Below, piece by piece: positions 673 to 64,000 of a stretch of DNA of 64,000 bases. The DNA comes from Bilabrum cf. latius (Eukaryota). The DNA lies in contig OZ237747.1 in assembly GCA_965178125.1 (NCBI GenBank), forward strand, positions 372,001-436,000, given 5' to 3'. The first letter of the stretch is position 1; every line of letters begins with the position of its first letter. Below the pieces are notes generated by a model. It had not been told where the DNA came from and made no database searches. It saw nothing but the letters and a program-made list of their open reading frames with translations. The position numbers and the translations under genes are program-made.

Positions 673-689
673 GGCGTAGCTCGTCCTCG

Positions 690-1391: not shown

Positions 1392-1639
1392 CACACTTTC
1401 GGTCAAGAAGTCCGCCTTATTCCAGCCGAATACTCTGCAATACTTTTGCATTAGCAGATGCGGGTGCTTTGTAGCAAGGTAGGCATAGCGCTTGCTATAC
1501 TATCTGGACTCGCGCGCGGCTCTGCAACCGTGACACGAGTCGACATTGGCACGACTAGCAGTGGAATAAGCATGCTGGCTGATACAATTGATACCGTAGG
1601 ATCTGAGCTCGGTAGTCTGGCTCGCGAGCTAGTTCGCAC
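1392..1639 (+). repeat. Copy 2 of the direct duplication (the intact gene start)
   Basis: Matches 413..672. Confidence 0.9.
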
Positions 1640-4600
1640 TCCTCAGGGAGTATTCTTTGACGCATACAGCACTGCTGGGGGGCGTGAGGTTCACATGGCG
1701 ACGTGTAACGACAGCACAAATGTCCCGGCAGCTCATGTAACCCCTGTAGAGCTAAATCCGGGCTTGTTTGGAGGCATTGCACCCGACATGTCCCCTTCCC
1801 TTGTCGCCTCGCCGTCGCTTCAGCTGATAGCGTACTCTGGTACTCGCAAGGGCAAACGGTGGCCGGCCGTGATCAACACAAGCGACTCGAATTCTGTTGG
1901 CTTTATCGGCGACAATCATTTCGGCGAGGGCGATTTTCCTGCTTCGACGGTTTCGGCCCCCCGTTTCGTTGGACGCAGCTCCAGAGGGTACGCTGCGGAA
2001 ATCACGTTGGTGTGGCTTTCAGACGATGTCCTGTGCTTCGCGGACGAACTAGAGGATCTCGGTCAGGGCGCAGGAAAGTGGGGAATATGGTGCTGGGATC
2101 AGCGTCTTCCGGCGGGGGCGCAGCTCGTCTTCATCAATGGGTCTACTACGAGCAGAGTGCCGCCCCAGTTCCGGTACGGCCAGGCAGGTTGGGGATGTGG
2201 TGTAACCGCCCCCGAGGGTCCCCATGGAGCCGAGCCTGCCTGTTTTGACATGCGGATTCCATAGTCCACGAACTATTCCCAGATGCGTATGCTGATCGAC
2301 TTTGACGGCGGCAGCGGGGACAGCATTAAAAGCGGTAGTCGCGAAGGCCCCCGGACGGAGGTCAGCGTCGAGGATGTCGTGTGCTACTACACCTCTCATA
2401 ACGGCAATCGCCTCAATTGCTACCGCTTCTCCTTGGGAGCCTGGGTGGAGTCTGGAACAATGTCCGCCCAGCTGAACGCGGGGCCGATACCTGGCAAGAG
2501 GTCGATCCTCATCCGAATTTCCAGCAGGAGGGCTCAAGTACTCGACATGGAGAACATGGTGGCTCGGTCCCCGACCTGGAACTCTCCAAGTCTTCCAGAT
2601 GACTCGGTTCCACATGCGTCGAATAATTTTGCGAAGCACTTCACGGCAGCGAATGTTGGGATCGCAGGATTCGATCAGTACTACGCCCCGGAGCAAAAAT
2701 TGTATACTCTCCTCATGGCGGTCGATCCTCACACGGGCACCACTTACCCGCTTGAATCGTTTCCGAGATCCATTAGTGTGTACCAGTAGAGCATTGTGTC
2801 TGCGGACGAAGTGGTTCTGGCCAGCTCTCACGTGAGCCCAGGTGACAGCGGGTTGGTCCTTTTTGACTTCTCAGCCTTGCCAAATGTTACTAGCAACGCC
2901 ATTTTGGGCACGGTAGGCTCTGGCAAGATGTGGACAGAGCTGCATGCGCTCGGCAGTGGCAGTGGCGCGGCAGGATCTGGACGGCAGGCGACGGCAGCAA
3001 TTCACTCCAGCATAGGAAGCGACAAGGCGCTGTTCTACTGGAATGGGGATCTGGCTTCTAGCATTGTTGAAGTTACGGCACTAGTATCCAGACTCCCTGG
3101 CATCATGCTGCTGCCAAACTGCGACATGTCCACCCTGTTGTATATCGACGCGCCGCATGACGGGCAAGTGAGTTCGTATGAGCTCATGGTCAGCCACGTC
3201 CCGCGAAACGCGCCAGTGGACGCCTCACCCAGGTACGAGAAGCTGAACGATTTCACTAAAGACTCAAACGTCAGGCTCCACGAGTCGTTCTCCGTAAGTC
3301 GAAGCAATGGTGGTGGAGTCTGCTTCATCAACTCGGTCTTTGACAGCTGGAGTCAGATCTACATGACTGCCACGCTCAGCTGCGTGAGATCTTCGCAGCC
3401 CACGGTACTCGAATCGGTGTGGGACTACCCCGATGACCCGAGAAACACTGGAGACTATAGCGTGGACGTACAGCGTACCAAAACCGACACTGTGGTGACA
3501 ATGAGGGGCGACGGAGGTTTCCTTGTACTGCTGCAAAGTTCAACCGCAGTGCACGACGGCAGCGCGCACAAGCCGTACGACCCGTTTGCTACGAACGCGC
3601 AACCAGTCGGGGCGCTTGCAGCCGATCCTAATGAGGTCGTGAGCTTTGGTGGCCTGTCAAAAGCATGCGCTGCTGCTACTGCGTTCACTTGGAACAACCC
3701 TTAGCACAAGATGCTGTACATGGACTTCTCATCGGGTGACAGCGCCGTGTTTGACCCCAGTTCAGGCAGTGCCGACCCAATGACGAAGGTTGTTGGTGTA
3801 GCCACCGATACAGTGTGCGTGTTTCTCTCGCGCGAGAACGCGGCCAACTACACCCTATGGACTTGGGAGGCGGCCACTGCTACTTCGGCGAATCCGGTAC
3901 CGCACGCCATGCCTTTGCTTGAGGAGATTACTTCTGTTCACCAACAGCCTGGTCACCCATTCTTTGCCATCTCCGGGTTGCGCAATGGAGGGACCGAGAG
4001 CGTGTGCTTCGGCGTAGCAGTAGATCCGGCGACTGGGGCTGTGACTGTCGGTGCCGAGTGGGATGGACAGGCTGGGCTCGTTTCGACGAACTCAAGCGGC
4101 GTGTCAAAACCTGCGGACATGCAAGTCGCACGGACGTCCAGATCACTCCCAGCAGGCATCCAGCTGCATGAAGGCTAGGATTTCCTCGACGGTGCGGCAG
4201 CTACTCCGCCTCCGTCACTTCGAGAACTCGGGTCTCCGAACGTCACCGGGGTTATTGGCATGGTACAAGCCAGCATGCAGCTCGTGGTGGAAGCCGAGTT
4301 CCCGAATGGAACCCACACACTGATGACTTGGCCCTCGAGGTTTTCGTCTGCAGGCCGCATGCCAGCGTTCGTCCCACATGACGCAAACCTAGGTCCGAAC
4401 GGGGGAAGGGCAAGAAGAGTACAGGCAGTGAACCCAGACAACGACACACTTTGCTTCGTAAACGATGGTATCGCAACCGAGAGTAGCCTAGGCACCGAGG
4501 TAGCTTGCGTGATCGATAACGATCGAATCCAGGAGGCATTCGTGTTGGGCGATTTTGCGGAAGGTACTAATGACGTACGCGGCCTGGTCAACAGATGGGA

Positions 4601-5996
4601 CGGACAGCCAGGCGTGGCTGCTGGAGTAAAATCGCTACAATTTGGGTACGAGCCTACCATGTTCCAGTGGATCCTGCCTTCCGCGAGCCCATCGCCCACT
4701 CCATCCATGTCGTCAACGCCCACTCCGTCTGTGTCGGGAACACCCACCCCATCCAGCAGCCCGAGCAACAGCCCCACCCCCAGTGTGTCTGCAAGCGTCA
4801 GCAGCAGCCCGTCCACGTCGCCCACTGCGAGCGTCAGCAGCAGCCCGTCCACGTCGCCCACTGCGAGCGTCAGCAGCAGCCCGTCCACGTCGCCCACTGC
4901 GAGCGTCAGCAGCAGCCCGTCCACGTCGCCCTCTGCGAGCGTCAGCAGCAGCCCGTCCACGTCCAGCAGCCCCACCCCCAGTTTGTCGGCAACACCGGTG
5001 AGGCGAAGCATGCTAGGCTGCAGTCGTTTCACCGGTATCCCATCTTTTTCACGCACTCATTTTTTTCCCGCCCCCACATTCATTCTTGGACCCCGCAGAC
5101 ATCTACTGCATCTACGACACCCTCACCCGTGAGAAGAAACACCTGCCTTCATGCCATGATCCAGAGCTAGCTGCTCGGGGCAAGCTGCGGCAACCAGTCT
5201 TGCGACCCCAACCCCACAACTTCTGCCAATTCCCGCGTATCTAGCTTCTCAATCCGCGCAGTCGAGCCCCGTCAGTGGTGCACAGCCATCCAGCAGTCCC
5301 TCTTCTAGCGGCGGAACGGGAGACCCCACGACCAGGAGAAGGCGCAGGGGGAAGTCAGCCCCAAGCCCAGAGAATACTTCGGCCGCGACGTGCACCGACG
5401 CCCTGACCCAAGAGGCTGCCACCGCACCGGTGCTCGTGCAGTCCACCGTGACTGTGTCCGGCAGTGCCCCCAGTGACGTGGGATGTGCGAAAGCGGAGGC
5501 CTTCGTCTCCGCTGCAGTAGCTCCCGCCGGCCGAGAAGCCGATGACGCAGTCTTCTGGCTAGAACTAAGTTAGGACGAGGTAAGCACAATCCTCGTCATC
5601 CAGCTGCCCGCCGACTCAGTTGACGAGGCGGAGGACCTGCTGCAGCGCATCGAAGCGCAGCTGAGCAACGCTACAGCGCTAGCTGTGCTCGCGGATGGCA
5701 CAGGGGGCACGGCAGCGTACTCGAACGATGCGAACGTGGTGGACTCGCCCTACATCGAGATGAACTCTGGCGATGACGACAGCGACGGCCTGCCTCTGTG
5801 GGTGATTGTAGTCGTCGTGCTGGTGGCAGTGGCCACGATGACTGGGGTCGCGGTCATGTGCTGCTGTGGCTGGTGTGCATGCCTGCTCGGCAGAAGGCGC
5901 AAGAAGGAGGAGGAGCAGGATGAGGTGAAGAAGGAGGGCAGCACGAGCAAGGATGCAAGCATCACGGCTCGTGTGCAAGCTGCAGACCAGGTCTGA
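1458..5996 (+). CDS. Large type I membrane/cell-surface protein: signal peptide, beta-rich ectodomain, Ser/Pro/Thr stalk, one TM helix, short tail
   Basis: ORFs 1458, 2283, 2796, 3711 and 4260 share one frame and are separated only by TAG (2262, 2787, 3702, 4176); another TAG lies at 5571. Intron 4998..5098 (GTGAG..GCAG) and probable intron 5129..5261. TM segment LPLWVIVVVVLVAVATMTGVAVMCC followed by RRRKK. Ends in TGA. Confidence 0.8.
4791..4970 (+). repeat. Coding 36-bp tandem repeat (ASVSSSPSTSPT) x ~4-5, mucin-like stalk
   Basis: Unit gcgagcgtcagcagcagcccgtccacgtcgcccact repeated head to tail. Confidence 0.9.
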
Positions 5997-6448: not shown

Positions 6449-7930
6449 TCAGCTTCCGGCGCAATGCGATCCAGCCTCCTTGCATGGGTAGGGGCACATC
6501 ACGCGAGCTGTGCTCTGCGTCCCCTCGGGATCATCCAGCCAGTGCCCCACGGCCTCGGACTCGGACACACCCTGGATGCTCACCCCGTTAATCTGCCAGT
6601 AGCTCCCGTCCGTCTGGCAGTGACCGTTGCACGAAGTGATGAACGCGCTGTGGCGGGGACCTCCAGCAGATGGGTGAAGCACTGGATCAAGCACCCCGAG
6701 GTACCTGTCATGGTAGCCCTGAATGAGCTGCAGCTGCGTGGCATTGCAGTCCTAAAAGTTCCGGTTGCACTTGGCAAAGGCCGGCAGCAGGTTGCCAGCA
6801 TCGTCCACGGTGAACACGTTGTCGAGCTGCCACTGGTCGTACCTGCGAGCGATGCATTTGGGCAGAGAGGGATGCGTTTGGGTGTGATTAATGGCGTCGG
6901 CAGCTCCCGCCGCGATCAGAGCGCAATAGAGATCGCAATAGAGATCGGGCCCGTCCCCGTCCCCATGGTTCTCACCCACTGTTGAGAGCAAAGATCGGCG
7001 TGTGCAGGTGCGGCACCGTGTACTGGGCCATGTAGCACTGCCACTCGTCCGGAGTGCCTTTCTTGGCTGCCATGCAGGAGGCATCCACGCCCCCGGTAGC
7101 GTTGTTCTGCTCGTACACCCACTGGAACATGGTCCGGATCCAGTGCTCGCCGCCCAGGTTTGCCATATCGGGAAAGTAACCCGCGTCTGCGATGCACTGG
7201 GTCCTGGCGTTGCTGTTCAGTCCGTGCACGTAATCCGCGAACTCATCGCAGTGAAGATACGTCGCCAATCCTCCCGCCGAGCAGCCGGCCAGCACGGGGC
7301 GGGCGTACTTGGCCAGGTCGTATTCGTTCTTGAGCGTGTCCAGGATGGCCTCTAGGATCTTGTGTCCCTTGAAATGCAGCTGGGTGCCGTTGTAGATCGT
7401 CTCTGTCATATTGTTTCCGGCGAAGGACCCCCTGCAGTGGTATAGAAATGTAATAGTTGCAAATGTACAGAGTCGCGATGGAAAGTGTCTTTGGCAGTCG
7501 CAACCTACAAAGAGCGAAAGCTTGGCGCACGCAACGCTTACCCGTCGCAATATCGTGCATAAACCATTCGTGCCTTGTACAACTCGCCCCCCGGGTTCAG
7601 AGTAGCGTTGCTGCTTAGCATGCCGTTCCCGCCTTCATAGCTCGGCGACCACTTAGACGGGTAACTCTTCGAGCTGCCAAGCTGTCCCAAACTTCGCCCA
7701 AATGCCGCCTCAATGCTTCTTGCCCAGCCTCCACCTTCAAAAAAGAGCACAAAGTGGTCTGTATTGGCCTCTCCTGGCCAAACATAGAATGCTCCGGGCG
7801 ATCCATCGAGGCATTTAGCTTCAGGGTACTTCACGAGGTCGAGCTTGTGAAGCGTAAAGAGCTACTCCGCCGCAGTACTAGTAAATAATTGTACTAATAC
7901 CATACCTAGTACTAAATGTCCACCCTTCAT
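6449..7930 (-). CDS. Pectin acetylesterase/Notum-family secreted esterase
   Basis: Motifs CLDGSP, FEGGGW, RYCDGGSFAG, GCSAGG (nucleophile) and NSGYDQWQ. Signal peptide MKGGHLVLGMVLVQLFTSTAA. Intron 7432..7541 and a second at ~6843..6975. In-frame TAG at ~7862 and 6752. Ends in TGA. Confidence 0.88.
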
Positions 7931-8020
7931 CGCAAGATACACAAAAACCTGAGTGGAATTGATGCAGCGGAACCTTGCATACTTGGATATGCGCGGCGCC
8001 GTGGTTCAGGCTCGTTGGAA

Positions 8021-10381
8021 CAAGTCTTGAAGGGACGCTTGGAAGAGACGGTGGTTCAGGCTTTTCGCCTGGCCTACCTGGACCCAATCAGTGCGCGCGC
8101 ACTGTTTGCCCGGTGCGTTGTGCCGGCGTGGACGCACGTGCACAGGAGCGGGTGCCTCTTGCCCGAGCTCAAGGACGGGGTGACACCCCATTTGAAGGAG
8201 GTGTAGGGAGCGTTTCTGGAGTTCCTGACAGGGATGCGTGTAAGCGCTCTCTCGCAGGCCCAGAGACAGGTGTTGGACGTGCTGGGTCCGCTATCCGTTG
8301 CCCGTGGGGGCCTCGGAGTGGGGCTCGTGCCTGCCGATTTAACCCGGGAGGCAATGTGCGTCGGGGGGTTGTTGGATGTGTGGCCCTGGTTGGCGAGGGT
8401 AGCACGCGACTTCAACCTGCCACACCTGCAGGTGGCGCTCAACCAGTGGGACCCGGCGGAGGAGGTCGGGGAAGGTGCGGCGGCAGGTGCCGGGGAGGCA
8501 CCCCCTCTGCTGAACCCACTGCGAGGGCGCACCGCGCGCCTGAACTCCCTTGTGGACACTGTGATGACCGCAATCTCGAAGTACGGGAGACTCGTACAAG
8601 AGGGGAAGCAAGACAATTTCGGGATGGCTGGTTTCCCGAGTCCGTTGCTTCCACTTGTTCCGGAGGCTGACGTCCCCCCACGCTATGGTATGGTGTGGGA
8701 CACAGCCCGCACTTCGGAACTCCTGGGCAGCCCAGCCGAGAAGGCAGCCCGTATGGAGCTGTGCGGTGGGGCCACTGAACCCTGGCGCCTGGAGGTGAAG
8801 GACCTTCGGGCATGGGTGACGAGGCAGCTGGCTGGGGAGCAGCCGGCACCCACCGCATCGCAGGCGGTTATTCGTTTTCTCGAAGGTGCCGCAGGAGGGC
8901 ACAACCAGAGCCATGTGACGGCACTGGCTGAGCGAGTGCAGGTGGAGAGGCTCCTCTGGGATGCCTCATCTCCGCTTGCGCACGACAGACTCGCTCCAGT
9001 CGATGCAGTCACCAGAGAGTACGCAGGAGTGGCGCGAGCCACAATCCGCGCCGCCAGGTCCCAAGGAGCCGGGTCTTGGCTGCATGCGCCGCTCTCTGTC
9101 CTGAGCCGAGTCCAGCCTGAAGATGCCCGGGGCATGTTCTGCCAGCGCCTCGCCATCCCACAGCCGTGCAGCTGTCCCCCACAACCTCTTGGGGCAACGC
9201 ACGGTGCATGTGGGGAGGCGTGGCGCGTCACGCAGATCTGCCCGGGGTGCCGGAAGCAGGGCAAGGTAGTCGAACTGATCTAGTCAGTTCGCCACGGTGC
9301 CACGTGCAAGGACAAGCGTGTCTGCGGAGGCCTTCCAGGCCGCAGGCACTTCCGGGTGCTCAACGTGCTCGAGCAGGTGGTCCGCGAGGCCACGGGCAGA
9401 CGCCCTATCCGGGAGCCAGAGGGCCAAGTGGCCCGGCTGCCGGGTCGGCGCGGTCCGCTCGTGCCACGAGGCGACCTATTCTTTGAGCACGAGGGGACGG
9501 CTTATCTCATCGATGTCACGGTGGTTGATTCCACTGCGGCAACTTACCGGTGGGACCGCTCGTCGTGGAGGATTGGCAGCGACTGGCAAGAGGGGTCTGC
9601 TCTGCGGGCCGCGCATGCCACGAAGCTGGCCAGCTACGGCAGGCCCGTCGACCTCGGAGCGCTCGGCGTCCGGATCGGAGGAGAAGACAAGTGGTGTCCT
9701 GGGACCGTGAGGACGCAGAAAGGGGCGGTACGCAGTGGCGTGCGGGTCGTACCCTTTGTGGTGGACGTGTTGGGGGGGATCGGGGAGAAGTCGGTCGAGT
9801 TCCTGTAGGTGCTCGATAAGCTGCGGAAGAAGAGGCAGGAGGACAAAGGGCGGCGGGTTCCGACTCGTCCGGCCAACGCGCGCCTCTCGTGGTCTTCCGT
9901 GGCAAAGGCTCGCCTCTCTGTTGCCGCCTAGCACCAGCACGTGCGCGGGGAACAGCGTGTGTACCACACTATGTACTCACGGGTCATGCAGGACCACTCA
10001 AGGATCCTCGATTTTGTCTCGAAGGGATCGAGGAGGGCTGCAGCGAAGGCCAAACGGGCGCTCGCAAGGGCGATCCGAGAGGACTTTGCCAGCCTGGCTG
10101 TAGGGGCAGCCGAAAACAACAACCTCGCCGTGGCGATCGCCAACGTCAAGGCAGGGTTGGCTCAGAACGGGCAGCAGGACGGGGTGCCGGCAGCGGGCGC
10201 CGGAGGGAACGTGAATGCTGACGCTCTCCATGGGGAAATGGGTCCCCAGGGTGGAGCTTAGGTGGTTTAGGCCATTGCAGCTGAAGCGTGAAGTCTGGTA
10301 GGTCCCGGGCCCTCGTTCCAGATGTTTCTTCGTGATAGCGTGCGCTTTTGAGTTGAGTCCACAAAATATCAGATCCCCCCC
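8021..10381 (+). mobile_element. 5'-truncated non-LTR retrotransposon with restriction-like endonuclease (CRE/R2-group-like), flanked by an 11-bp target-site duplication
   Basis: One frame to TGA at 10291 with TAGs at 8204, 9281, 9806, 9929, 10259 and 10268. Contains RT-thumb GGLG, AGSWL, CCHC knuckle CPGC..H...C, RH..V, DLFF...IDVTVV, K..SY and VPFVVDVLGGIG. No RT core (YxDD). GCTCGTTGGAA at 8010-8020 and 10382-10392. Confidence 0.85.
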
Positions 10382-10775: not shown

Positions 10776-13700
10776 ATGAGCCAGGCGCCTCTGATGGTCT
10801 CTGCATCAGCTAGTTCTAGTGAAAGAAGTCAGCTTGGTTCATCAAATGCAGCATTGGCTACTACTGCTGGCGAAGTATGCACTAGACAAAGGAGAACTTC
10901 GTCCACTGCGTCATAGTTCAAGTCATCTGTGATCTCACCGGGCGTCTCCGGGGACGGGATGATCGACGACGGCTCGGCGCTGAAGCGAGCAACCGGCAGC
11001 ACCAGCGGCACGATCGGCCAGGCAGGGGCTATGCTTCCCGCCGCCCCCGAGGGAGTGTCTGCTCAAGACCACAAGATCGAGTTGGCAAGCTCTGCAGCAT
11101 CTTCGCCGGCAGCTACTGCGGCCTTGCAGGAGCCTTCCACGCCAGAACCCAGCAAGGCCGCGCAGACTAGCCTTGAAATCCTGCGGTCGCCCGCTGAGCA
11201 GCTCCAGATCAGCCTCGATGCGGCCAGGACCACAATTTTCGAGGGTGGCTCGCTCCAAAAGATCCCGTTTAACAAGCCGGGGTACATCCACGCGCGGCAG
11301 TTCCAGGTGGTCATCGACCAGCATTACCGCGCAGTTGCCGCCAAGCGGGAGCAGGACAGGCTCGCCGCCATGAGGGCGCATGGGTGGGCCAGCCAACAGG
11401 AGGTAGAGGCGGCATTGGGCCCGGCCAAGCGCAGGCGAGTGGCCCCTAGGAGGCGAGACAGGGCCATGGTGCGGGCCGATACAGCCATGACCGCTGGAAT
11501 CCAGCGCGGTGAAGGGGGCTGGGAGACTCTATCGCTGACCTGGAGGGAGCCGCCCAAGGCAGGCGCATCCTTGCTGCCATTCAGCTCGAGCGGCACGAGA
11601 TCTGTGTGTCTACTGCAGGCAAGAGAGGTCGTGCTGGGCCACAAGACCCCTGCATTCCGAAGCCAGAAGGCGCGAGGCAATGACAGAGTGCCGCCGCCAG
11701 AGCAATGCCTGAGTCTCATGTGCGGCGACCGCACAGTGGATCTCGCGGTGAGCTTGCGTCCAGACCCATGCCCGCCCCGATCCGATTCCAACCGCGTGTA
11801 CGCGTCTGCTCACTATTTTGCTGGTTTTGCTTGCTTCCCATCTTCATTCCGTATCGCAGTGTAACTCCAAGCTAGAGCGCGACCTGTGGGCGAGAGGCCT
11901 TGCGTGGGCAATCCGGGAAGCCAGATGCATAGCCTACTATGGGCTGCCTCCAGTGGAATCCAGCAGCAGCGAGGAGTCAGAGCCAGAGCATAGGTCCAGC
12001 AAGAGAAGAGGCAAGGGGGGAGCTAGGCGGGTCATGTACGACGAGGATGGGGCAAGCGAGGCGGGCTCTTCCAGCAGTGATGATGGTGGTGACAGCGCGG
12101 GTGCCCGAGCATCCGGTCGCAAGCAATCGTCCAAGCGTCGGTCCTCGGCTGACCCCGGTCGGGGTAGAAAGCACACTGCCTCAAGGGCTCTAGAAGACGG
12201 ATTCAGCGAAGACAGCGAAAGCAGCAGCGAAGGGGCATCACCGGTCGGTCGAAAATCCTCATCGCGTGGCCCTGGAAAGACTGGTCGATCGTCTGCGCGA
12301 GGGTCCAAAGCACGTCTAGGTTCCAGCAGCAGGCGCGACACATCGGGGGCACGGGGCTCCAGAGGTACTCCTGCAAAGACACCCCGTGCCCCTCGTCCTG
12401 CGAGAGCGGTGCGAGATGCGTGGTTCCGCGCGGTGCGTGGAGGCAGGACGGGCAAAGTCCTCCAGCTGCTCAAGCAGCACCCTGGTCTACGGGAAACCGA
12501 GGAGAAGAGAACGAAGGACACGGCCCTGCTGCTCGCGTGTCGACTCGGTGCGGTGGACATGGTGGAGGCCCTGGTGAAGCAGCGGGCCAAGTACGACCCT
12601 CACCCCCTGCACGGACACTCGGCCGTGCATGCCGCGGCAGCGTGCGGCAGGGCCGAGTGTCTCGCTGCACTTCTGGAGACTGCGAGCGCGAGCGGGGCGG
12701 CCGGCCGTCTAGTGGACTCGATGTGCCTGGACGATTTCGGGTGCACTGCGCTGCACATGGCGTGTTCCCTGGGGGATGACGAGTGCGTTCGGGTCCTGCT
12801 TCAGTTCGAGGCCAGCTGGAAGCGGGCCAACGACCTGGGGAGGACCGCCCTCCACGCTCTGTCGGGCGGATGCGAGCGATCCACGAGAGTCGGCATGCCA
12901 GACTGCTGGCGAGGCGAGGAAGAGACGTCTCGTGGCTCTGTGGCAGCGCGCCGGTCGCTGGAGCTGGAAGCTGCTGGTATGGCCCCCTCAGGCAGCAGCG
13001 CAGTCCGGAGCATGGCAGCCCGCATCCCTGCCGAAGGCATGCCTCCACTCTCCCGCAGGCCAGCTCGCTACTCTGAGTGTCTCGAAGCCATATGGAAACA
13101 CACGCTCGCAGAAGCAATCGCGGAATCTGGCGTGGAGATGCAGTCGGGGGGGAGTGAGATGTCACAGACCCACCGCACGGAGCTTGCTGCAGCAGTGGCG
13201 CTGGGCCGAGATACGATCCGCAAAGAGCTTTCGCGCGGTGACGCCTTCGGAAGGACCCCTCTCCACTGGGCGGCAGCTCGCGGCATGAAGGGCCTAGTCG
13301 AGCTCATGCTGCGGATGAAGGCCTCTGCCATGCTGCTGGACGCGGGTGGTCGCTTGCCCAGTGCGATGGCGAGGGAGCAGGGGCACTCCGCGATCGAGAG
13401 ATTGCTTGCAAGCGCCGAGAGGGCGGCAGCAGCAGAGGGTGACCGGCAAGGTTACGCAAGCATCTGGAGCTAGGAGGAAGACGCCGCTGCAGTCGACAGT
13501 TCATCGAGGGAACCGTTCGACAACCTTGGTGCCGCAGGAGTTGGTCGAGCCCTTACTCCACGAGATGCGTCTTCCCTAGCTGGTGCTAGCAGTACAGTAG
13601 TTGGAGCGAAGTAGGCAGGAGTGGGAGCGGCGCAGGATTGGGGCCCGAGTACCGCTGCAGTCGCGCACACGGCCTCAGCCGCACCTCCGGTACCCGTACA

Positions 13701-16700: not shown

Positions 16701-17337
16701 AGAAACGACATCCACGGATGGCACGACTGGGAAGGCGGGTGCTGACGACACTGGATTCAGCTACGAGGGATTCTCGGAGCAGCTCGTGGCAGACATGAAG
16801 CCGGTCTCGGATGCGAGGCGGATCGTCCTGGGAGAGGCCGTGGCAGAAGTGAAGCGGCTGGTTCGTGGAGTCGAAGCTGCCAAGGCAGAAGTCGAAGCGC
16901 TCGAGAAAGAACAGGCTTAGGGTCGGGCAGCGCCAGGCGCAGTGGCCGTCGCCCCCTCTGCTCCGCTTGAGCCAGAAGACACCAGGGTGATGCTGCAGGG
17001 GCTTCGCGCATTCCTTACCACCGCTGGCCCGAAGGCAGAGCAGCTCAAGAAAGCGATGGAGGATGCTGAAGGCGCCGGCAAAGGTCTGGCTGATTTCTTC
17101 GGCGAGGACAGTGCTAAAGTGGGTCCGGATGAAGTGTGCACAATGCTGCAGACATTTGTGGATGCGTTCAGGGATGCTTCAAGGAAGGCCGCAAGCAGGT
17201 TAAGAGCGGGTGAGCATGGAACTGGGGCCTCCAAAGACAAGGGTGGGGCCGGTGCCGCGAAAGGTGGTGCTGACCGGGACCGCCGCAGGTCCACGAGAGG
17301 CCCGGCTGCCCTGCCACCCCGACTGCCGGGCACTTGA
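10776..17337 (+). CDS. Multidomain formin (~2149 aa): PH-like domain, ankyrin repeats, WW, Arg/Pro-rich FH1-like region, FH2
   Basis: Intron 11748..11859 joins DRTVDLA|CNSKLERDLWARGL (PH end). Ankyrin motifs TALHMAC and GRTPLHWAA. WW YYMNAATGET*WESP. FH2 motifs LKTLKLHW and VLAVGNAMNEGTSKGGASGCTLDSLLRLSSTKARDKKTTLLDYV. Exon 2 is a single frame interrupted only by TAG. Ends in TGA. Confidence 0.88.
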
Positions 17338-48850: not shown

Positions 48851-51800
48851 ATGGATAAAACTCCAACTGCAAGAACTACATCGCGCACAGCTACCGGGCG
48901 ATCCGCTAGCAATGCTGGTGCAAACTCTGGCAAGCTCTCTGGGGGTCGACGGAGGCACCAAGGCTCTTGGCGAGGCATTCTGTACGCATCGGGCATTCTG
49001 GGGCCGGTCAATGCTTTGACTGTGAACCGATGCTGTGAAGTGGGGTTGGAGCCACCGGAGTGTCTCCCCCCAAGGCTTCCGCCAGCAGTACCGCAGGAGT
49101 CTGCGGGACACTTGGTCCGTGCGCGGGTGGTCGCAAGGGCCAGCCAGGATCCGGCCCACTTGAGCAGCGACATTGCCATGTTCCGCCTCCCACACCACGA
49201 ATCACATGTCTCACTGGGCCGGCTGCCTGACCCTGTTGATCCCCCATGCATCCGGTTCGACCCTTCGGAAGGCAGTGCGGGTGCAAGGGCGCACAACGCA
49301 GCTGTGTTCCAGAGCTACGGCGTGAAATACGGCTAGCAGGCGGCCCAGGCCCAGGCATCGGCTGCCAGCTCATCGTACACGGAGTGGATGGTGCGTCCGC
49401 CGCCCACACGGCTTTAGCTGGAGAGCCGAGGCAGGGCAGGGACTGGAGCCGGCAAGAAGCGCGCTAGGCAGGGGCATTCTGCCGCCTGGTCCAAGGGCCC
49501 AAGCAGCGACACGGTGCAGCTGCCCGTGCTGCCCCCGGGGCTGAGGTACGCCATCGATGCGGTTTACGCTGAGCAGGCTTGGCTGCGGCTGGGTCCTCCG
49601 AGACAGGAAGTGCTTGCCGCGATGGACGCTCAGGCGAAAGCAGCGGCACGCCGCGGGCCCAAACACTCCCCTGGGGTGGACCTGGGCCGACTGAATAGAA
49701 TGCTGGACGACGACACCTTGGACCTGCTGGAAGATGACATCGATGACGCTGCATACGATGCTCATGCCGAGGCGCGCGGGGGCGATCCGAGCGGTGCCAA
49801 GGATACAGCCGGCCTCGATTCCGCGGAAACGGACGAGGAGTTCGATGACAGGATCAAAGATCGGCTGGCGAGGTTTTGGGAGCGCGGTGTGGGTCCTTTC
49901 TTCGCCCCATTGTGCTTTGGAGTGCTGCAGCCGATCGTGTGGCATGCGAGGCGAGGTGCCAGGTCGGGGCAACCAGCCGGGGCCGCGAGCAGCAATTGGC
50001 AGTATGCTTAGCAAAGCAGTCTGAATGACGTGCTGCTGGCGAGTCGGTGCGAGGAACCCTGTCCGTGGCTGGGACCTGATGCACCAGAAGACGATGAGGG
50101 TGCAGCAGGCGGTGGCTCTGGTCCCGGCGACAGGCTGAGCTGGGACGATCCTGCCTCCATTGCAGCGGGGTGCCTAGTGCCGTTCGTTGGTGATCCTGTG
50201 CGGCCGCGCAGTGCACCTGAGTGGGACACCCCCTTCAGGGGTACTCCTTCGAGCAGCAGCAGCGCAGTCGCTCGCAAGCTGGACGGACACGGCAGCCAGT
50301 CTCACGAGGATTGGCCCCCTGCCTGGCTGAGTGACACTCCCCTCGAGGACGGGCAGCCAGTGGCGGGCTCGTTCGCGGGAGTGGTGAGGCAGGGCATCGC
50401 TCGGGTGTTGATGCAGCGGAGGGGGCGCGCAGGCGTGGCTGCGTTCAGGGTGACTGCGCGTCGGGAGGGTGCCTCACAGAACGGATCCAGTGCAGCTGAG
50501 CTGCTTTGGTGGAAGCCCCTTGTGCCAGACGTTTGGGCACTGCGCACGTCGCCCGAGGATGGGGGTGCAGATGACTGCGAGGCGGATGACGATACGGTAG
50601 ACCAGACCGAGGATGAGGCGTATGAACAAGCAAAGGACGAGAATGAGGACGAGGACGAGGACGAGGACGAAGATGCAACCAGCTAGCCATCAAGAGCTAG
50701 GACTGTGGCCCCTAGCACGGCCAAGTCGGGGCGGCAGAGCGCTCGCAAGCGCTAGAGCCGCACGCCAAATCCGCGCACGCCGACTGTCCCGACTAGAGAA
50801 CCGAGGTCGCGCCGCGCCGCCGCGGCGTTCTCGACCGGGACGCAAACCGATGGCAAGGAGCGTGCAAGCGGGTCTGTGAACCTGAGCTATGACTCGTCTC
50901 CCCTGTCCCTTGAGCTTGCAACGCTGCTTGCTCGGCTGGATACCCTGCAGAAAAGCAACGATGCCATGTGCAGGGAGGTTCTCGAGCGGGTGCATGCCTC
51001 CGGTGAGGCCAGGTATGCGCGATCGAATGTGGGCTGTGGAATGCCCGAGGTCGAGACGGCCCCGCAGGATCCGGTGGAAAAGCTCTTGGAAAGCAAGTGG
51101 CCCGACCACAGGTACTCGCCGTACGCCACCGCTGGTGGCTTGCCGTTGCCGCCGTCGCTGCCCCAGTCGTACCTGAATCGGTACGCATGGGAGCCTAGCC
51201 GCGGTGCAAGCGGTTCGACTCCACCTCTACCTGCCCGACCTGACCCTTGCTGGGCCGCGGAGCAGCGCGACGGCCTTGAGATGGAGGAGCTCGGCAGGCC
51301 ACGCAAGCGAGTCGGGGCGCCGATTCCCTGGCTACCACGCAATCTCATGTGGGAGCTGGCGATGGAGCGGGAGTGGCTGAACTGCGAGTCTTGGCTGCTT
51401 GCTCGATCTAGCATATTTAGGGGCGTACGGGATCGCGTTGGCGGGTTTAACAAGAGGCGGGCGGAGATCGTGCCGGCCAGCTGGGCCATCCGCACTGAGG
51501 GCAGGCCCACAGCGGAGCAGCTCGCTGCGAAAGCAGCGGGCAAACCGAAGCAAGGCCAGGACTCCTCTGGTGCAGATTCGTCAAAATCGAAGCCGGGTCT
51601 CAGCTTTGCGGCTCCGGGCCTGGCGAGCGATGAGGCTGTGAATCGAGCGGCTGAAATGGCCGCAGGCTTGGCTGTGCATAGTCGGTCCGGCTTGGCGCAC
51701 AGGGGCGGGAAGCCTGGCATGCCGCTGGCCGAGGCCCTTGACGAAGGCAGGCAGGTAGTTGCGGGTCTGAAAGACGGTGATGAGCTTGCATCCGCGGAGC

Positions 51801-54800
51801 CACATGTTGCCAACGCTGTGTGGGGGTTCCGAAAGGTCATGACAGACGCGAGCAATAAGAGAAGTGGTGGAGCTATCGGTGGCAGGGCCACTGGCACCAG
51901 TGGTGATGCAGAAGCAGGCGATGGCAACGGGAGCGGGGTCGTGAACTCTCGGGACGAAGGAGAAGACGACGTAGTGTGTAACGTCTGTTTCGATGGCAAG
52001 TCCTCGCCCAAGAACCAAGTCGTGATGTGCGACCGGTGCGACGTCGCAGTACACGCGGCGTGCTACGGAGTTGCTGAAATCCCCGACGGACCATGGCTGT
52101 GCGACGTGTGCCGAGAGGCAAAGCGAGCGCAGCATCTCTCGGGAGGAGGACCGGTGGGTAAGGCGCGCGCCGCTGCCGAAGTGCTGCTGGCCAGATGCTG
52201 CCTGTGTGAGTCGCGAGGCGGTGCGCTAAAGCTCACAGCGGACGGCAGATACGTCCATCCCATCTGTGCCATAACTTCGCAAGGCGTATGGATCGACGAC
52301 TTCTCCGAAATGAGTGGGATTGTGGCTCACAGTAGCGCCTCCGCCACAGTCAGGCGTGCGAGGCTGGCAAGCAGCGGACAGGCTCGCTCGTTTGCTAGGT
52401 ATGGATTTCGGTGCCGCTCCCCGGGCCACGTGCTGCGTCTGCTAAACGCCTCCCACAGCGCTCAGGCGGACCCAGGATCATTGTCACAGCATGTATCGGG
52501 TGCGTGCGTATCTACAGATGAAATGGGGGCGGCACTGAATTCGCCGATATGGACATATTCGTGTGGAGTGCTGCTGGGAGCAGGCGGCAAGAAGGCTGTA
52601 GAGGAGGTCCTCGCTCCAGATGATCACGAGATGAACCGAGATGCCAAATACATGAAGCAGAGAGCTATTGCCTACGCGCTTGCGCCTCCGGCACTGCCGG
52701 CGCAGCGGATGCTGACTGGGCAGGAGCTCATGGAAGGATCGAATGCGAGACCGCTCATCGAGACGCTTGGCGAGGGATAGAAGAGATCGAGAAGCGGTTC
52801 CTTGTCTCACGCCGTTCATACCGCCTCCAGAAGCAGCGCCCAGGCGACGAAGCAGTCTCATAGGCCTAAGAAAAGCAAGCAGGTGCCATCCAGTAGCCAC
52901 AATGGGGCATCTTAGCAGGCCCCGTCGCCAGCAAGCACCCCAAGCTAGAGCTCGCAGACAGTGGCGCAGCAGCGACTGTGGAAGGTTGTTTCCGAAGAGC
53001 CTATTGGGCTGGATATATTTCACCCTGAAGGAGCCTTGCAGCGACTGGTGCCTAGATGGCTCAAGCTCGACGACGATTCCGCGACCGGAACCATCCCAAA
53101 GGTCTCGGAGTCGCAGGCTATCACGATGGCCCGCGGCGGCCAACGCATTGGGATGCGGTACTCGTTTCCTAGCGAGGCCGTGAGCAAGTCGTCGGAGTAC
53201 TACCAGGGCTTGGAGCATGATGGTCCCTACTTCACGCTCGGTATGGACGAGATGAAAAAGTTTTCCGCGTGGCACCCCCCTCGCCGTTTCTTTGCAAAGG
53301 TCATGTTTGTGTTCCACAGGGATGAGGACGATGCGAAGGCGCGGTAGGAGAGGCTCGATCAGGTCGCGGCCGAGTCTGGCATCGCTGCCATGACCGGGGT
53401 GCCCACTAGTTTGGCCAAGAAGGAGCTTAAGGCGGTGGATCAAAAAGCTGACGGGAGCACATCGCTTCCAGTGAAGCCTGCATCGGTGTCAGGGTGCCCA
53501 AAGACCGTCCGCTTGGTGTTTCGCGTTCCGCCAAAGCATGTTGCTTCGACTATGCATATGGCGTGCAGGCAGAGGCCAGAGCAGGATGATATTCATGCCA
53601 ATGTCACCAGAGTAAGGCTGAAGCTCAACCGTGTGTTGCCGGATGTTCGCGCCGAGCAATCCTCAGCGCTTGCCAGCACTCCATCTGGGCGAGGGAGAGG
53701 GGGTCCCAGGTCAGCAGGAGCCGGGCATGGCGGTCGCTCAGATTTTGTGCTGCCGGACTCTTCTTTAGGCAGCAGCAAGCTGCAAAACGAAGGGACCTCC
53801 CTTGCTCGTGCATTCCGCAGCAAAATGCCCCAGCCCAGCCAGGAATAGCTTCAATTGAGGCGCAAGGAGGGATCTCTCGTCCGTCCACAGCGCGGTCTTG
53901 GGACGCACGAGCTCGTCCTGGCGCGCAAGCATAGTCGGTGCGAGCTGTGTGGCAGCTGCGAAGGCAGCATTGTTCTCGCATCTAGGGGAGGCCAGCCCGC
54001 ATCAGCGCCTGTGCATCTGCTGTGTGCTTGGCTGCACGGCTGGTACATCCGCTCTGGACCCATGTATCCGTCCCCAACCGTGTGTCCTGGGCTGCCGAAG
54101 CCGTGGTCCGACCCGAGGACGGACCTGGTAGGGAAGGTGGATAAGTTTTGGAGAATTGTAGGGCAGCCTCGACTGCCAAGAGTACCGCCAGCTTCCCAGA
54201 TGGAAGACGTCGTATTCCCTGGCGGCGGGAGTGGGCTTGCGCTGCAGGTGCTTGCACCGGCCAGTTCGGCTCAGTCCCAAACTCTGGCCAACCAGCAAGC
54301 TCTGATTCGAAGGGCGTACTTTCACAAGCCCAAAGAAGTTTGGATGCTGTACGCCGCTCGAAGAGATCACCTCAAGACCTCTGCAGCGCGTGCAGCATAG
54401 GCCATCGCGGATGCTCTGCATATGTAGCGCGTGCCTGTGCACAGTGTGCCGAGCATGAGCAAAGCATCATTGAGCGCCGCACCGTTATCATTTGCAGAAG
54501 ATTCGGTTGCGCCCAAAAAGTCCAAAGCGGTGACTCCGTCTGGCAGAGGCAAAACCAAGGCCGGTGGAAGGCCGAGTGGATCGGCTGCGTCTCACACGAA
54601 GCAAACGAAGCAAACGAAGCAATCAAAGCCGTAGAAAGCTAGCGAGCAGCAAAGAACTACCAAACAGGCAAGGAAATCATCAGAACGCGACCAGCATGCA
54701 GCAACCTCTCGGGCTGTGCCCGATGATGGGGAGCGAATCAATAAGCTTTTGCTCGGCGACCCCCGGCCGTAGCCGAGGTGGCTTTCGCAACCTGCATCCG

Positions 54801-57800
54801 CTGGCGCTTACTTGCTCTCCACGACTGCCATCAAAGATATCGCTGATGCAACCGATAGCGTGCCCGCTGCCGCCGTGCAGGCGCTAGGCGAGGCTCGCGG
54901 CACTCTCTTTGCACTGCGATTGCAGCTAGAGCAGGCACACAGGATGATGGAGCTTGTCGAGTACAGGGAGCGGCTGCGGATGGCATCTTTGGTCAATGAC
55001 GATCTCTGGTTTAATGAAAGCATCGATCGGGAGATCCACTTGGCTGGCGGTTAGGGTAGTCCCAGCAGCAGTAGCGGCAGCAGCCCCAGCAACAGTAGCA
55101 GCAGCAGCCCCAGCAGCAGTAGCAGCAGCAGCCCCAGCAGCAGCCCCAGCGGCAATAGCAGCAGCAGCCTCAGCGGCAGCAAGAGGAGCAGCACTACCAG
55201 CGGCGGTCAGAACGGCGAAAGCGAACTCGGACTCACTGTCCGTGTGTGCCCACCGCGTCATGTGCACCGACGGATCGCGGCATCTCGAGCGCCATCCGAT
55301 GCTGCGAGTGCCACTCTAGGCCGGCGGTCAAGCCCGGCGGAGTGTCAATCTGCCATCCAGTCGTACATGCAGTCGCGTTCTAGTGCGCTTCATGGTCTCA
55401 AGCACGCACTTGGGTCTCCCGTGCTTCGCCGGGCGCGCGATTCTCAGTCCTGGCGATATCCAGACCAGGACCGCTTGCCGGTGGGACCTGAAGCCGTGGT
55501 GCAAGCTGTAGGACAACGCGGAGTTGCGCTGCGATAGGTTGACCGCAACGATTCTGTAGGTGCTCCCAAGGATGCGGCCGGTCGGTCGGCTCCGTCTGGG
55601 ATGCAGGCGATGCTAGACGAGTCCGATGGCGAAGACGGTGGCGATACCGATGACAGCTCTGACGTTGACGAAGGTACTGCCTTCACCAGAGCACCGCTGC
55701 TCGCACTTGATGCTGAGCTCGCTGTAGCAAAGGATCTGGATCGCGATCGTGCTCTGGGCCATCCACTAGAATGGCCCCTCCATTAGGCTGGCGCAACGTT
55801 GGGGAAGTACCGTACAGATCGTCACGTCCGTCCGTCTGGTTTCGATCCAGCCGACTTCCGGACTTGGGCTCGCGAGGGATAGGTACGAGCTTCTCTTAGT
55901 CGGCTGCCGCGCTGGATACAACCGGCTTCATCGCTTCCTAGCGAGCAGAGCGCATCGGAGTATACCGTTGACGCTCACAAGACCCGAATGGCTGCTATGG
56001 GAGCTGCTTCGACTCGATAGGCTGCCATCGTGAATGCAGAGAACGAACGAGTGCCTGCGATGGGCTCGAACCCCGCCGCCGGCAGCACTTCAGCAGCTTG
56101 GGCCGGTTCAGGCGGAAATGGAAAGTCCAAGCCACCAAGGTTCGCAGGCGGCATCTGCATCGGGCCGCGCTCCTTCTCAGGGATCCCAAAGGGGCATGAT
56201 GAAGCATTGCCTTCGCACGATGATGTCCCCTTTGGTAGCGCCTTCGAGCAGCTGGGCAGCTAGCATGCCACGTTGGAGGCTGCGTTGGAGTCTTTGAAGC
56301 CTAGGTCGCAGGTTTCCTCAGCCAGCAGCAGCAAAAGCAGCAGTAGCAGCAGCAGCAGTAGCAGCAATGGTGCACAAGCAAAGAAGCCCAAGCGGCCCAA
56401 AGCCAGCGCCATGTGGGACGGGCCTCTACCTGACAGACATTTCACCCTGGAGCATGACGTGCTGGGAGCGGTGCGGCCCCATGTGGGGCCGACTAGCGGC
56501 TGCCAGCTCGTGTAGATGCCACGTTCCTTCGAGCAGCATGCGATCGCGACCAGCAAGCTTACCAAAGAGTAGCTTGCGAGCGAGGCCAGGGCTGCTCTGC
56601 TCATTGCTGCTATCGTGGACCTATACGACCCTGCAGCCGCTGCCATGCATTGCATCAGACGCAATTCGGTGGAGGTTGATGAGGCAGCCATGGCAAGCAA
56701 CCAAGTGACAGGCACCTCTGTGGGTGATGATGTCGCCGATGAGGCTGTTTGCAAACTGTTTCGGCTGCCCAAGATGGACGAATCGTTTGAGAGCTTGTCG
56801 GTGCCGAGCAAACGAGCCGCCGCGATCGTTGTCGGGGCATCCTACATGCTGGAGATGCCGTGCATTCCTGAACTTGAAGACGACTACTAGAGAAGGGTGT
56901 GCGACAGGAATCCGCTGGGGCAGGCTGCGTGGGTGCATGTGCCTCCTGGTCGGATGCCAGTGTACGAGCTGTGCCTGCAAGAGGCCAACACATCCAAATC
57001 GAACGACCCTTGGGACAGGCCGCCGCTCTAGTCCTTTGGCTCGCTGGTCCAGAGGCTGCAACTGCATGGACTCACGGACTTCGACGCCACTCACGAGCAG
57101 ATGTAGTTTTCTCTGCATGCAGTGAAGGACGCGACCCCGGTGAAGCATCCAGTGCACCGAGCGGCCTACATTGCAATTTCATCGTTCAAGCACGCCGAGG
57201 ATCGTACCGCTCATATGGCCGAAAGCTCCTCGCATAGCAGCTTCAACGCGTATGCTCGTCCCGGGTCTGAAGAGGCCATTTCAGCCAGTCTGGTGACGAA
57301 GCACTCGAGTAGGAGACAAGACTCCATGGCGGGCGCGGCATCGCCGCGGAAAACTGGCGCCGGAGCAATGCAGCGTGGACCACCCGGCGATACCTGGGAG
57401 TCAACCGGTGGATCAGCTGCATCTGCTACGAGTGGAAGCGAAAGCCCGCGGCAGCGCGGCAGCGGGTAGGCTGCAGCGGTCGGGACCCCGAAAGGGTACT
57501 CTGAGCTTGTCGGGGAGCAGGTACAAATTGGGAAGCGATACATCTGGAGCAAAAAGGTGCTTGCTCAGCTAGAGAGCATGGAGCGAAGCAAGGAGGCTTC
57601 AGCTGCGATGGTTCGAGCGTGTCTCGATGCCGGTTGGCCCAGACTAGATGGAGATCTGAGAGGGCTGTGCACGAAGCAAACGGAGGCCTCGAGGGCTGCG
57701 CTGCTGCAGGCCTCCAAGGGATTGTCATAGTCAGGCGGTGTAGGCTTGCTCTTTGCCAAGTGCAGTTGCTGCAGTTGCGTGTACTCTCTGGATGCACTGA

Positions 57801-58603
57801 GGGACGCCAACTCGTTCTACGGGTCACCTTAGGCCAAGCACACCCAGTGCTACCTCCAGGCCATGGGCCGGCTGCAGAACTCCTACTTTGACATCAGGAA
57901 CGAATCTGTGCAATGCAAGGCTCAGATAGATCCGAAGGTTGACGTGCTGCAGCACAGCGGCACGGATCGCATCCTCGGCGCGCCTTCAGAAGATAGCCTG
58001 CCCGGCCACTCTGCCCCCGGCGATGCCAGCCTAGTGATGTACCTGCAGCCGCTGTCGCCGGCATTGTCGCAGGAGTCTCCCGAGTCCGTGGTCATGTATG
58101 GTCTGCTGTCTTGCAACGACACATTCGTTTAGCACGCATGCAATGCTGGAGCGGCTCCCGAATCGTCGAGTGCGAGTGGCAGCTCTGGCAGCGGCGACAG
58201 CGAGTCCCTCGTGTGGCACAGGGACTGGGTGTGCCCGGCCTGTATTCACGGGCAGGGCCAGCAAATGGAAGGCAAGACCTTCTGGCTGCGGTCCGGCACG
58301 TACGGGATGCGGTGGCTGAAGGCGACCGCGTCGTAGTTTGAGGAGAGGAGCAGAACACACAGGTTATGGGTCGAGGTACCAGCCGATGCAATTGGGCACA
58401 CATCGCACGAGGATCGATCGCATGCGAGCGCAAGCAGTGCAAGTGGGGGCGATAGTGTCTCCAATGCAGCAACATCTGCCAGCAAACCCGACCGGCCAAT
58501 TGGAATGCTGGCTGTTGCTGCCGAGCGCGGCTGGAGTGGATTCTGGGACGTGCTAGACCTCTCCATGGTAGACGCCGTGTGGGACAGCGACAGCATTGCA
58601 TGA
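48851..58603 (+). CDS. Giant single-exon (3250 aa) BRPF/JADE/NTO1-like PHD (PZP) chromatin scaffold protein
   Basis: Continuous 9753-nt frame with ~29 TAG by my count and no TAA/TGA until 58601. PHD CNVC..MCDRC..VHAACYG....PWLCDVC, knuckle CCLC..RGGALK.T.DGRYVHPICA and the LRLQLEQAHRMMELVEYRERLR helix. Confidence 0.82.
55058..55182 (+). repeat. Coding Ser-rich imperfect repeat (agcagcagcccc / agcagt units)
   Basis: Repeated ccccagcagcagtagcagcagcag units in the frame of the PHD gene. Confidence 0.75.
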
Positions 58604-63185: not shown

Positions 63186-63345
63186 ATAAATTCAGAGCGC
63201 TGCTTTTGAAAAGTCTGATAGGGCGGCGCACGATCCGGCCAACTTTCAATTCGGAGCAGATGTGCAACTGCGACCATAGGCTCTATCGCAACCCGGGCAA
63301 AACAAACACGCACCTGGACATAGCTTTATAAAGTTTATAGTCTGT

Positions 63346-64000
63346 ATGTCGTTTGCACGGCTGGTCTTTTGCCGTCATGGCTAGAGCGAGAACAACGTTT
63401 TGCAAGATATTTCTCACGATCATTACAAGAAGCACAGATTAGCAGACCCAGACCTGACACCAACAGGATTCGAGTAGGCCAAGGCGGCCGGTGATGAAAT
63501 TAAGAGATTGATTGAAAAGACGAAGCCTGCTAGAGTACTGCTCTATGCTTCTCCGATGAAGAGGGCCCTCAGGACGGCGCAGCAACTTGCACTTTCGTCC
63601 AAGGTTCCGATTCGCATCGCCCCAAACGCCTTCGAGGCAGGTGGAATATTTAGAAAAGAGGTTGCCACCACTGCAGGCGCTGCAATGGCTGGATCCGCGC
63701 AACCGGCCTCGGCCTCGGTCTCGGGCCAAGCGCCACCGGCAGCCGCCGCGCCGCTCGAGCTCACCCTGGAGAAAGCGACTCATCTCGTGCCCGAGCTGGA
63801 CCGCGACCAGGCCGCGATGATTCTTTCAGAAAAAGGCTGGTACCACGACAAAACGTACTGCAAGGAGCCCTGCAGCAGCACTCTCAAGAGGGCTGCGAAA
63901 GTCGCACGGTGGGTGCGGTCTCTGCAGCCGATGCCGGCGCCAGAGAAAACGAGTGCATGCAAGCAGGAACGGGGCGGTGGGGCCGCTGTGTCTCCTTCTG
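63346..64000 (+). CDS. Histidine phosphatase superfamily (phosphoglycerate mutase-like) protein, running off the window end
   Basis: MSFARLVFCRHG*SENN..DPDLTPTGFE*AKAAG..LYASPMKRALRTA; frame open to 64000. Confidence 0.88.

Follow-up and report, generated by a model that had tools for sequence, protein, structure and literature searches.

Evidence that UAG is probably read as glutamine, with UGA and UAA as stops, in the nuclear code of a GC-rich eukaryote

Introduction

The window considered here, that is, the whole analysed stretch of 64,000 nucleotides (nt) from Bilabrum cf. latius (assembly GCA_965178125.1, contig OZ237747.1, positions 372,001 to 436,000), contains protein-coding genes that are crossed by in-frame TAG triplets, and the question it raises is how UAG is read in them. 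We propose a nuclear code in which UAG specifies Gln and both UGA and UAA serve as stops, a reading to which a probability of about 0.88 is given. The pattern is that of NCBI table 15, as had been pointed out in an earlier note made from the letters of this DNA. According to this reading UAG would be an ordinary Gln codon in essentially every gene, behaving as a synonym of CAG. The assignment to Gln is decided chiefly by sequence comparison with close relatives, whereas the status of TAG as a sense codon is already apparent from the window itself. All positions given below are those of the window.

Open reading frames are interrupted by TAG

The GC content of the window is 56-68% (about 60%). 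With the standard code the longest stop-to-stop frames measure 674, 670 and 579 amino acids, and reading TAG as sense extends the top frames to 3255, 1861, 1315, 1191, 1066, 1052, 954, 804 and 791 amino acids. When TAA alone is taken as sense the longest frames have 693, 674 and 579 amino acids, nearly without gain, and when TAA is made sense on top of TAG the frames of 3255, 1861, 1315 and 1191 codons keep the same length. Taking TGA as sense also lengthens the frames, up to 1298 amino acids, an increase that is expected when the commonest stop triplet is dropped in GC-rich DNA and that comes nowhere near the 3255-amino-acid frame.

Triplets were counted in the 15 main stop-to-stop open reading frames (ORFs), which comprise 15,442 codons once the terminal stops are excluded. 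Frames 0, 1 and 2 contain 115, 114 and 115 TAG, respectively, with no depletion in frame; the corresponding counts are 0, 34 and 51 for TAA, and 0, 257 and 259 for TGA. The in-frame zeros of TAA and TGA are a consequence of the way in which the ORFs were cut, and the lengths of the frames remain the statistic to be considered. At the off-frame rate of TAA plus TGA computed from these counts (1.95% per codon), about 63 such triplets would be expected in the 3255-codon frame, which contains none of them and 31 TAG. The earlier claim that almost every gene is interrupted only by in-frame TAG is thus borne out by both frame lengths and frame counts, and at least one such TAG is present in all of the approximately 20 gene candidates except the carboxylesterase. 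The 15 ORFs contain 672 codons of the Gln type (419 CAG, 138 CAA and 115 TAG), so that TAG would account for about 17% of the Gln codons and 0.74% of all codons.

Gene families were assigned by Pfam on frames read through TAG. In several of them functional domains lie downstream of TAG, which supports its being sense: most of the B12-binding domain of methylmalonyl-CoA mutase (MUT) follows the TAG at 41270, the second Na_Ca_ex domain of a Na/Ca exchanger follows 6 TAG, the FH2 domain of a formin-like protein follows 13 TAG, and the GTPase domain of a Rab-type protein follows both TAG of its gene. In the formin one TAG (13882) comes directly after CAG CAG, and another (14065) is inside the WW domain. 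The TAG positions singled out before (41270, 14065, 63382, 63475 and 31224) were found as described, and so was the CAG CAG TAG of a Gln run at 13876-13884.

Comparison with close relatives

Protein searches returned short fragments 71-96% identical to proteins of the window. A metagenome scan with the exchanger protein of the window gave no match, and a scan with a relative's fragment (P0136) gave the contigs L001 to L019. L001, with a GC content of 0.58, is the source contig of one of the fragments and carries an exchanger ortholog that is intact if TAG is read through and that ends at TGA. In the codon alignment of the two exchangers, with 839 aligned residues, of which 485 are identical, codon 466 (34907) is TAG in both, codon 811 (35942) is CAG in the window and TAG in L001, and codon 860 (36089) is TAG in the window and CAG in L001. 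Four other pairs involving TAG, situated in poorly aligned low-complexity parts, set it opposite R, G, G and R.

A second relative, about 92% identical, is represented by fragments over part of the giant PHD-finger protein (1218 of 1319 residues identical). There, six TAG of the window align with Q, Q, Q, H, K and W, and TAG differs by a single base from each of the codons AAG (K), TGG (W) and CAG (Q). As a control within the same comparison, the Gln residues encoded by CAG or CAA in the window are opposite Q in 43 of 47 columns, and the relative's Q stands opposite only 4 of the 1266 other, non-Gln residues. Taking both relatives together, the well-aligned pairs of TAG with a sense codon give Q in five of eight, the rest being H, K and W, and never S, E or L. 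Some standard-code gene calls of the relatives end right before a codon that is TAG in the window (P0136, at exchanger codon 466, and P0287, at PHD codon 1504), and others right before a CAG-encoded Gln of the window (P0284, at CAG 1296, and P0134, at CAG 778), as expected if the relatives have TAG at those codons. The code is common to at least two related organisms besides that of the window.

The exchanger ORFs of other, unrelated organisms, found in L002 (581 codons) and L003 (713 codons), have no TAG. In L003, a contig with 68% GC, the more distant exchanger homolog lies within positions 1-5350 and the adjoining gene for a papain-type cysteine protease is likewise devoid of TAG; it is possible that this contig offers a standard-code outgroup with which the reassignment could be dated.

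Distant homologs and codon context

Alignments with more distant proteins give a less uniform picture. The TAG at 41270 (residue 611 of MUT) aligns with Gln in human MUT (PDB 8gju and 2xij), and the column holds Q 57, S 50, A 7, R 3 and others 3 in the 120 homologs listed. The other TAG of MUT (43010) falls in a variable column, with Q as the commonest entry nonetheless (Q 31, D 23, E 18, gap 17 and S 12 of the same 120). The exchanger alignment comprises 149 of the 150 listed representatives, a single 4202-amino-acid protein being left out; the TAG at 34907 corresponds to column 466, with Q 62, gap 32, E 12, R 11 and K 7, while column 860 varies, with R 33 and K 28, and columns 78, 186 and 495 consist largely of gaps. 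The histidine phosphatase gave no PDB match at E <= 0.01, and its alignments come from a looser search with the exon; in these the TAG at 63475 is opposite Gln in four of the five listed PDB alignments (5zkk, 5zr2, 4ij5 and 4ij6), the fifth being a chance match to GAPDH. In the WD40-repeat gene the TAG at 37473 aligns with A in generic or designed repeats and is uninformative. Regarding the context of the codon, enrichment within two positions of TAG is higher for Gln than for any other amino acid (31 of 458 neighbours, 1.88 times the background).

A number of observations weigh against Gln or are neutral. The phosphatase TAG at 63382 aligns with Glu in the three alignments that span the RHG motif, the formin WW site at 14065 has Q in only one of nine listed WW alignments and is in a variable column, and the TAG sites of FH2 align with A and S in mDia1, from which all five listed alignments derive. 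In the GH31 glycosidase no Q is found at any of 8 TAG sites, the comparison being with 6 distant homologs of 26-34% identity at variable columns. A likelihood was summed over those TAG columns, 11 in number, that are at least 50% occupied, with substitution frequencies taken from the three alignments that supply these columns. Q comes first, followed by Ser at a distance of 0.21 log units and Glu at 1.61, and with Ser so close distant homology alone cannot settle between Gln and Ser. Moreover, in the comparison with the relative of about 92% identity the TAG sites are less conserved than the CAG and CAA sites (3/6 against 43/47); TAG codons may be located at less constrained positions or have a faster turnover, the sample being small. 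Hence, of the families in which the earlier note had proposed a conserved Gln at TAG, the proposal holds for MUT at 41270 and for the phosphatase at 63475, and it fails for the phosphatase at 63382 and for the WW domain.

These data bear on the alternative that UAG is sense but specifies another residue, the candidates being Ser (with a precedent in Scotinosphaera), Glu (found in some ciliates and in Blastocrithidia) and Leu (found in the rhizarian exLh). The small likelihood differences, the S present in 50 of 120 sequences at residue 611 of MUT and the Glu opposite 63382 would be in keeping with it. However, the eight pairs from close relatives contain Q five times and none of those three residues, even though the columns of S, E and K are about 90% conserved in the same alignments (121/135, 66/70 and 43/47); the gene calls of the relatives break at CAG-encoded Gln of the window; and it is Gln that is enriched beside TAG. 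A residue other than Gln is consequently considered most improbable, and the assignment of UAG to Gln, put forward in the earlier note, is upheld by the conserved columns and, with more weight, by the exchange of TAG and CAG between close relatives.

Stop codons

The 14 complete ORF ends comprise 9 TGA and 5 TAA, and, together with the absence of both triplets in frame from the 15,442 codons, they agree with the earlier view that UAA and UGA are still stops. TGA closes MUT and the exchanger where their homologs close, the C-terminus of the exchanger being the same as in L001 and P0130, and in the Rab gene TGA comes directly after the C-terminal CaaX-like motif CVIS. An ambiguous code with all three stops reassigned, of the type of Condylostoma, Blastocrithidia or Amoebophrya, was discarded on account of the same absence of in-frame TGA and TAA.

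The role of TAA deserves separate consideration. It could be supposed that both UAG and UAA specify Gln, as in NCBI table 6, with UAA being just rare in a GC-rich genome and UGA the sole true stop. Indeed, TAA is rare throughout the window (184, against 511 TAG), and its function as terminator is based on just 5 ORF ends, called from frames alone, one of which (61196) is in a presumed intron; this is a weakness of the reading proposed here. Nevertheless, judging from the ratio of CAA to CAG (138:419), about 38 TAA would be expected beside the 115 in-frame TAG, and none is present, while 34 and 51 occur off frame. The invariance of the four longest frames when TAA is also made sense points in the same direction. 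Furthermore, the GH31 gene ends with TAA, one codon and TGA, and in the ORF at 23975-27175 the GC content at third codon positions (GC3), 0.65 before TAA, falls to 0.49 over the 88 codons after it. A table 6 code is therefore regarded as very unlikely.

A different possibility is that UAG, besides being sense, also terminates translation in some genes. Since the ORFs were delimited by TAA and TGA, a terminal TAG placed before an open 3′ untranslated region would be missed, and the 3′ ends with support from homology or from a motif, and from RNA as well, are just two (MUT and Rab). Yet every ORF that can be judged ends with TGA or TAA near the end of homology, as occurs with MUT, the exchanger and the CVIS of Rab; TAG is not depleted in frame; and in MUT, the exchanger and the formin homology runs past the last TAG. 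Such a dual role of UAG is held to be unlikely, although slightly less so than a table 6 code, and termination at UGA and UAA is retained in the reading proposed.

Splicing and independent sequence runs

The possibility that the TAG triplets do not reach the ribosome was approached through public sequence runs. A word search with a stretch of MUT found a full match in four runs of one sample, and 92-93% of the words in three runs from two other studies. Four runs (X1, X5, X7 and X8) were compared over positions 40901-60900. X1, which is DNA-like, yields long contigs over this stretch with no differences. The gene-sized contigs of X5 and X7, from two other studies, omit 43027-43211 (185 nt), 44500-44736 (237 nt) and 44911-45086 (176 nt), introns that are bounded by GT..AG when read on the coding strand. 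The exons with the TAG at 41270 and 43010 (MUT) and at 43950 and 44028 (Rab) show no other letters in these contigs. Joined as in the contigs, the exons encode a MUT that starts with an initiator Met and whose N-terminus is presequence-like, and a Rab of 405 codons that ends with CVIS and TGA. The exact removal of the introns is the reason for which X5 and X7 are read as transcripts, although none of the matching runs is recorded as RNA, the type assigned to these two is a guess and X5 is labelled 'probably DNA', a point that counts against this interpretation. X8 had been taken as a candidate relative, sharing 0.21 of the words, and was rejected as such, for it contains the same organism at low depth together with unrelated MUT genes.

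Spliced contigs that retain TAG exclude sequencing error, editing and splicing-out. An explanation by artefact, or one without translational meaning (systematic C>T error, UAG edited to CAG, TAG spliced out, or a tract of pseudogenes), is further contradicted by the identical letters in four runs of four studies, with no differences in the long contigs, by the relative from a separate metagenome, whose exchanger shares one TAG codon with the window and carries further ones, and by the number of genes affected, some 20 unrelated ones being hit by TAG only and never by TAA, TGA or a frameshift. It is given a negligible chance. Two checks set out in the earlier note, the retention of UAG in mature mRNA and the search for C>T errors in independent data, have thereby come out in favour of UAG as a genuine codon, with four TAG sites unchanged in the spliced contigs and identical letters in independent runs.

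Known codes and the host organism

Nuclear codes in which UAG and UAA are split are few: the discussion of McGowan et al. (2024; PMC11687900) names only a single fornicate, a single rhizarian, one genus of green algae and a few ciliates. The same paper gives UAG alone as Gln in Iotanema spirale, Hartmannula sinica, Trochilia petrani and Protocruzia tuzeti, as Leu in the rhizarian exLh and the TARA phyllopharyngeans, and as Ser in Scotinosphaera; these last three resemble the host in having UAG uncoupled from UAA, but neither Leu nor Ser is found opposite TAG in the close-relative pairs. Iotanema spirale (Fornicata) is like the host in that, as described by Panek et al. (2017; PMC5304391), UAG alone is reassigned, to Gln, with UAA and UGA as stops. 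Its UAG likewise makes up a minor share of the Gln codons (about 8%, against about 17% in the host), and its eRF1 carries T32G in the GTS motif. Iotanema is, however, an anaerobic metamonad known from its transcriptome, whereas the host has a mitochondrial B12-dependent MUT, about 60% GC and introns of 176-237 nt.

The ciliates Hartmannula sinica, Trochilia petrani and Protocruzia tuzeti share with the host the UAG-only change to Gln, the widespread use of the codon as sense and the maintenance of UAA as stop. They differ in that, according to PMC11687900, UAA makes up 86.9-98.3% of their stops and UGA is the least used, in contrast to the 9 TGA and 5 TAA of the host. In addition, there are no ciliate signs in the window, whose genes are long and whose best protein matches are stramenopile and other non-ciliate sequences. 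UAR as Gln (NCBI table 6) is assigned in the same paper to many ciliates, ulvophyte green algae, hexamitids, Streblomastix and Amoeboaphelidium; the residue is that of the host, and a change of a tRNA-Gln anticodon with a relaxed eRF1 is presumed likewise, but UAA is not sense in the host. In crAss-like and other phages with code 15 (PMC9523058) TAG is Gln as in the host, those systems being viral or prokaryotic while here it is a matter of spliced nuclear genes.

The host is a GC-rich, intron-bearing, aerobic eukaryote, and the window is nuclear. Its closest MUT matches are 77% identical, none being near-identical, and are mostly from stramenopiles (oomycetes, Hondaea and ochrophytes). A quick IQ-TREE search with 41 rows, chosen by hand among the 120 MUT homologs listed, left the window sequence in an unsupported polytomy, grouped with no sampled clade, for which reason no placement is claimed. 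Mitochondrial MUT with a presequence, a GC content of 60% and GT..AG introns of 176-237 nt would fit neither Iotanema nor the ciliates. We give even odds to an independent, unreported change of UAG to Gln in a GC-rich, aerobic, intron-bearing protist lineage without supported affinity, comprising at least three organisms with about 60-92% protein identity. In such a lineage TGA, and not TAA, would be the main stop, the reassigned codon would occur under GC pressure and not under the AT pressure to which codon capture is usually ascribed, and TAG sites seem to turn over faster than CAG and CAA sites. Full-text literature searches, in which most subscription journals were not covered, found no prior report of this code in stramenopiles, labyrinthulomycetes or other GC-rich lineages outside the ciliates and fornicates.

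Proposed decoding and its significance

In the model, cytoplasmic ribosomes would read UAG as Gln and terminate at UGA and UAA alone. UAG would be decoded by a tRNA-Gln(CUA), separated from tRNA-Gln(CUG) by one change in the anticodon; by Watson-Crick pairing this tRNA would not read UAA. The N-domain of eRF1 would have lost the recognition of UAG while still recognising UAA and UGA. These two components are postulated by reference to what PMC11687900 and PMC5304391 describe. No tRNA genes (ARAGORN) and no Rfam RNAs were found in the window, nor tRNA genes in the relative contigs L001, L003 and L011 (ARAGORN), and the eRF1 gene is not within the window.

The kind of code is already known, and the lineage appears to be a new instance of it. 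Codes that split UAG from UAA in the nucleus are very rare, and they bear on how eRF1 discriminates UAG from UAA and on whether reassignment requires an AT-driven loss of the codon. A GC-rich lineage with genomic and apparently transcriptomic public data, and with relatives that share the code, would provide a new comparative system in which the change could be dated and the alterations in tRNA and eRF1 identified. On the practical side, gene calling with the standard code fragments the genes of the host, and the database proteins of its relatives end at Gln positions; thus annotations of the lineage and quality estimates of its metagenome-assembled genomes will stay wrong as long as code 15 is not applied.

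Genes in the window

The genes and ORFs to which the preceding sections refer are collected in Table 1; a carboxylesterase and a pectinacetylesterase-like protein are further Pfam families of the window.

Table 1. Genes and ORFs of the window, with TAG read as sense
Feature	Coordinates	Strand	Codons	In-frame TAG	End	Remarks
ORF without Pfam family	1185..5132	+	1315	6	TGA	C-terminal Ser/Thr/Pro-rich repeats
ORF without Pfam family	7916..10291	+	791	6	TGA	
Formin-like (ankyrin repeats, WW, FH2)	11752..17337	+	1861	16, including 13882 and 14065	TGA	
ORF without Pfam family	17473..21048	-	1191	11	TGA	
ORF	23975..27175	-	1066	7	TAA	
PP2C phosphatase ORF	27877..29325	+		2	TGA	
Lipid-droplet hydrolase (LDAH) ORF	29526..32390	-	954	5	TGA	TAG 31224 within domain
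Na/Ca-exchanger gene	33512..36670	+	1052	6	TGA	
WD40-repeat gene	36708..38837	+		3	TAA	Ends a few residues past the last WD repeat
Glycosyltransferase-28 C-terminal (Alg13-like) ORF	38876..39931	+		2	TGA	
Methylmalonyl-CoA mutase (MUT)	40973..43437	-		43010 and 41270	TGA (40973)	Pfam E 9e-230; Met at 43437; intron 43027-43211
Rab-type GTPase gene	43788..45418	+		43950 and 44028	TGA	TAG upstream of GTPase domain; introns 44500-44736 and 44911-45086; CVIS before stop
GH79-like glycosidase ORF	45802..47493	-		2	TGA	Unspliced transcript-sized X5 contig spans the ORF
PHD-finger / HC5HC2H ORF	48836..58603	+	3255	31	TGA	No TAA or TGA inside
GH31 glycosidase gene, two ORFs	58766-61180 and 61196-62461	-		8 + 5	TAA, TGA one codon later	Two ORFs presumably linked across a short intron
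Histidine-phosphatase gene	63190..64000	+		63277, 63382 and 63475		Truncated by window edge

The spliced MUT contig of X5 extends about 770 nt beyond the left edge of the compared stretch (40128-40972, minus strand), implying either an unusually long 3′ untranslated region of MUT (about 850 nt) or an overlap with the convergent Alg13-like transcript. MUT (40973-43102) has high contig depth, 2 TAG in 709 codons and a GC3 of 0.91 near its end, and the giant PHD gene has low contig depth, 31 TAG in 3255 codons and a GC3 of 0.63. From the contrast between them TAG may be a non-preferred codon, contig depth being a poor proxy for expression.

The giant PHD ORF is mostly without recognised domains, and gene-sized, RNA-like contigs cover its inspected parts without joints. 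At 50634-50675 there is a short acidic repeat, rich in GAG and GAC, with a depth spike in all runs and dozens of loose-ended or back-joining contigs; it looks like a low-complexity Glu/Asp repeat common to many genes and not a rearrangement.

The domain order of the formin appears unusual: N-terminal ankyrin repeats are followed by a Gln/Tyr/Gly-rich tract and the WW domain, after which come an extended Pro/Arg/Gly repeat and FH2. In the LDAH ORF some 370 in-frame codons past the domain (29526-30640, minus strand) are Arg/Gly/Ser-rich and coiled-coil-like, outside the Pfam model. The end of the 1315-codon ORF (4700-5132, plus strand) is made of tandem mucin-like Ser/Thr/Pro units of about 12 residues each, and the next ORF (5160-5996) has a transmembrane-like segment; the two ORFs may constitute a single gene for a surface glycoprotein.

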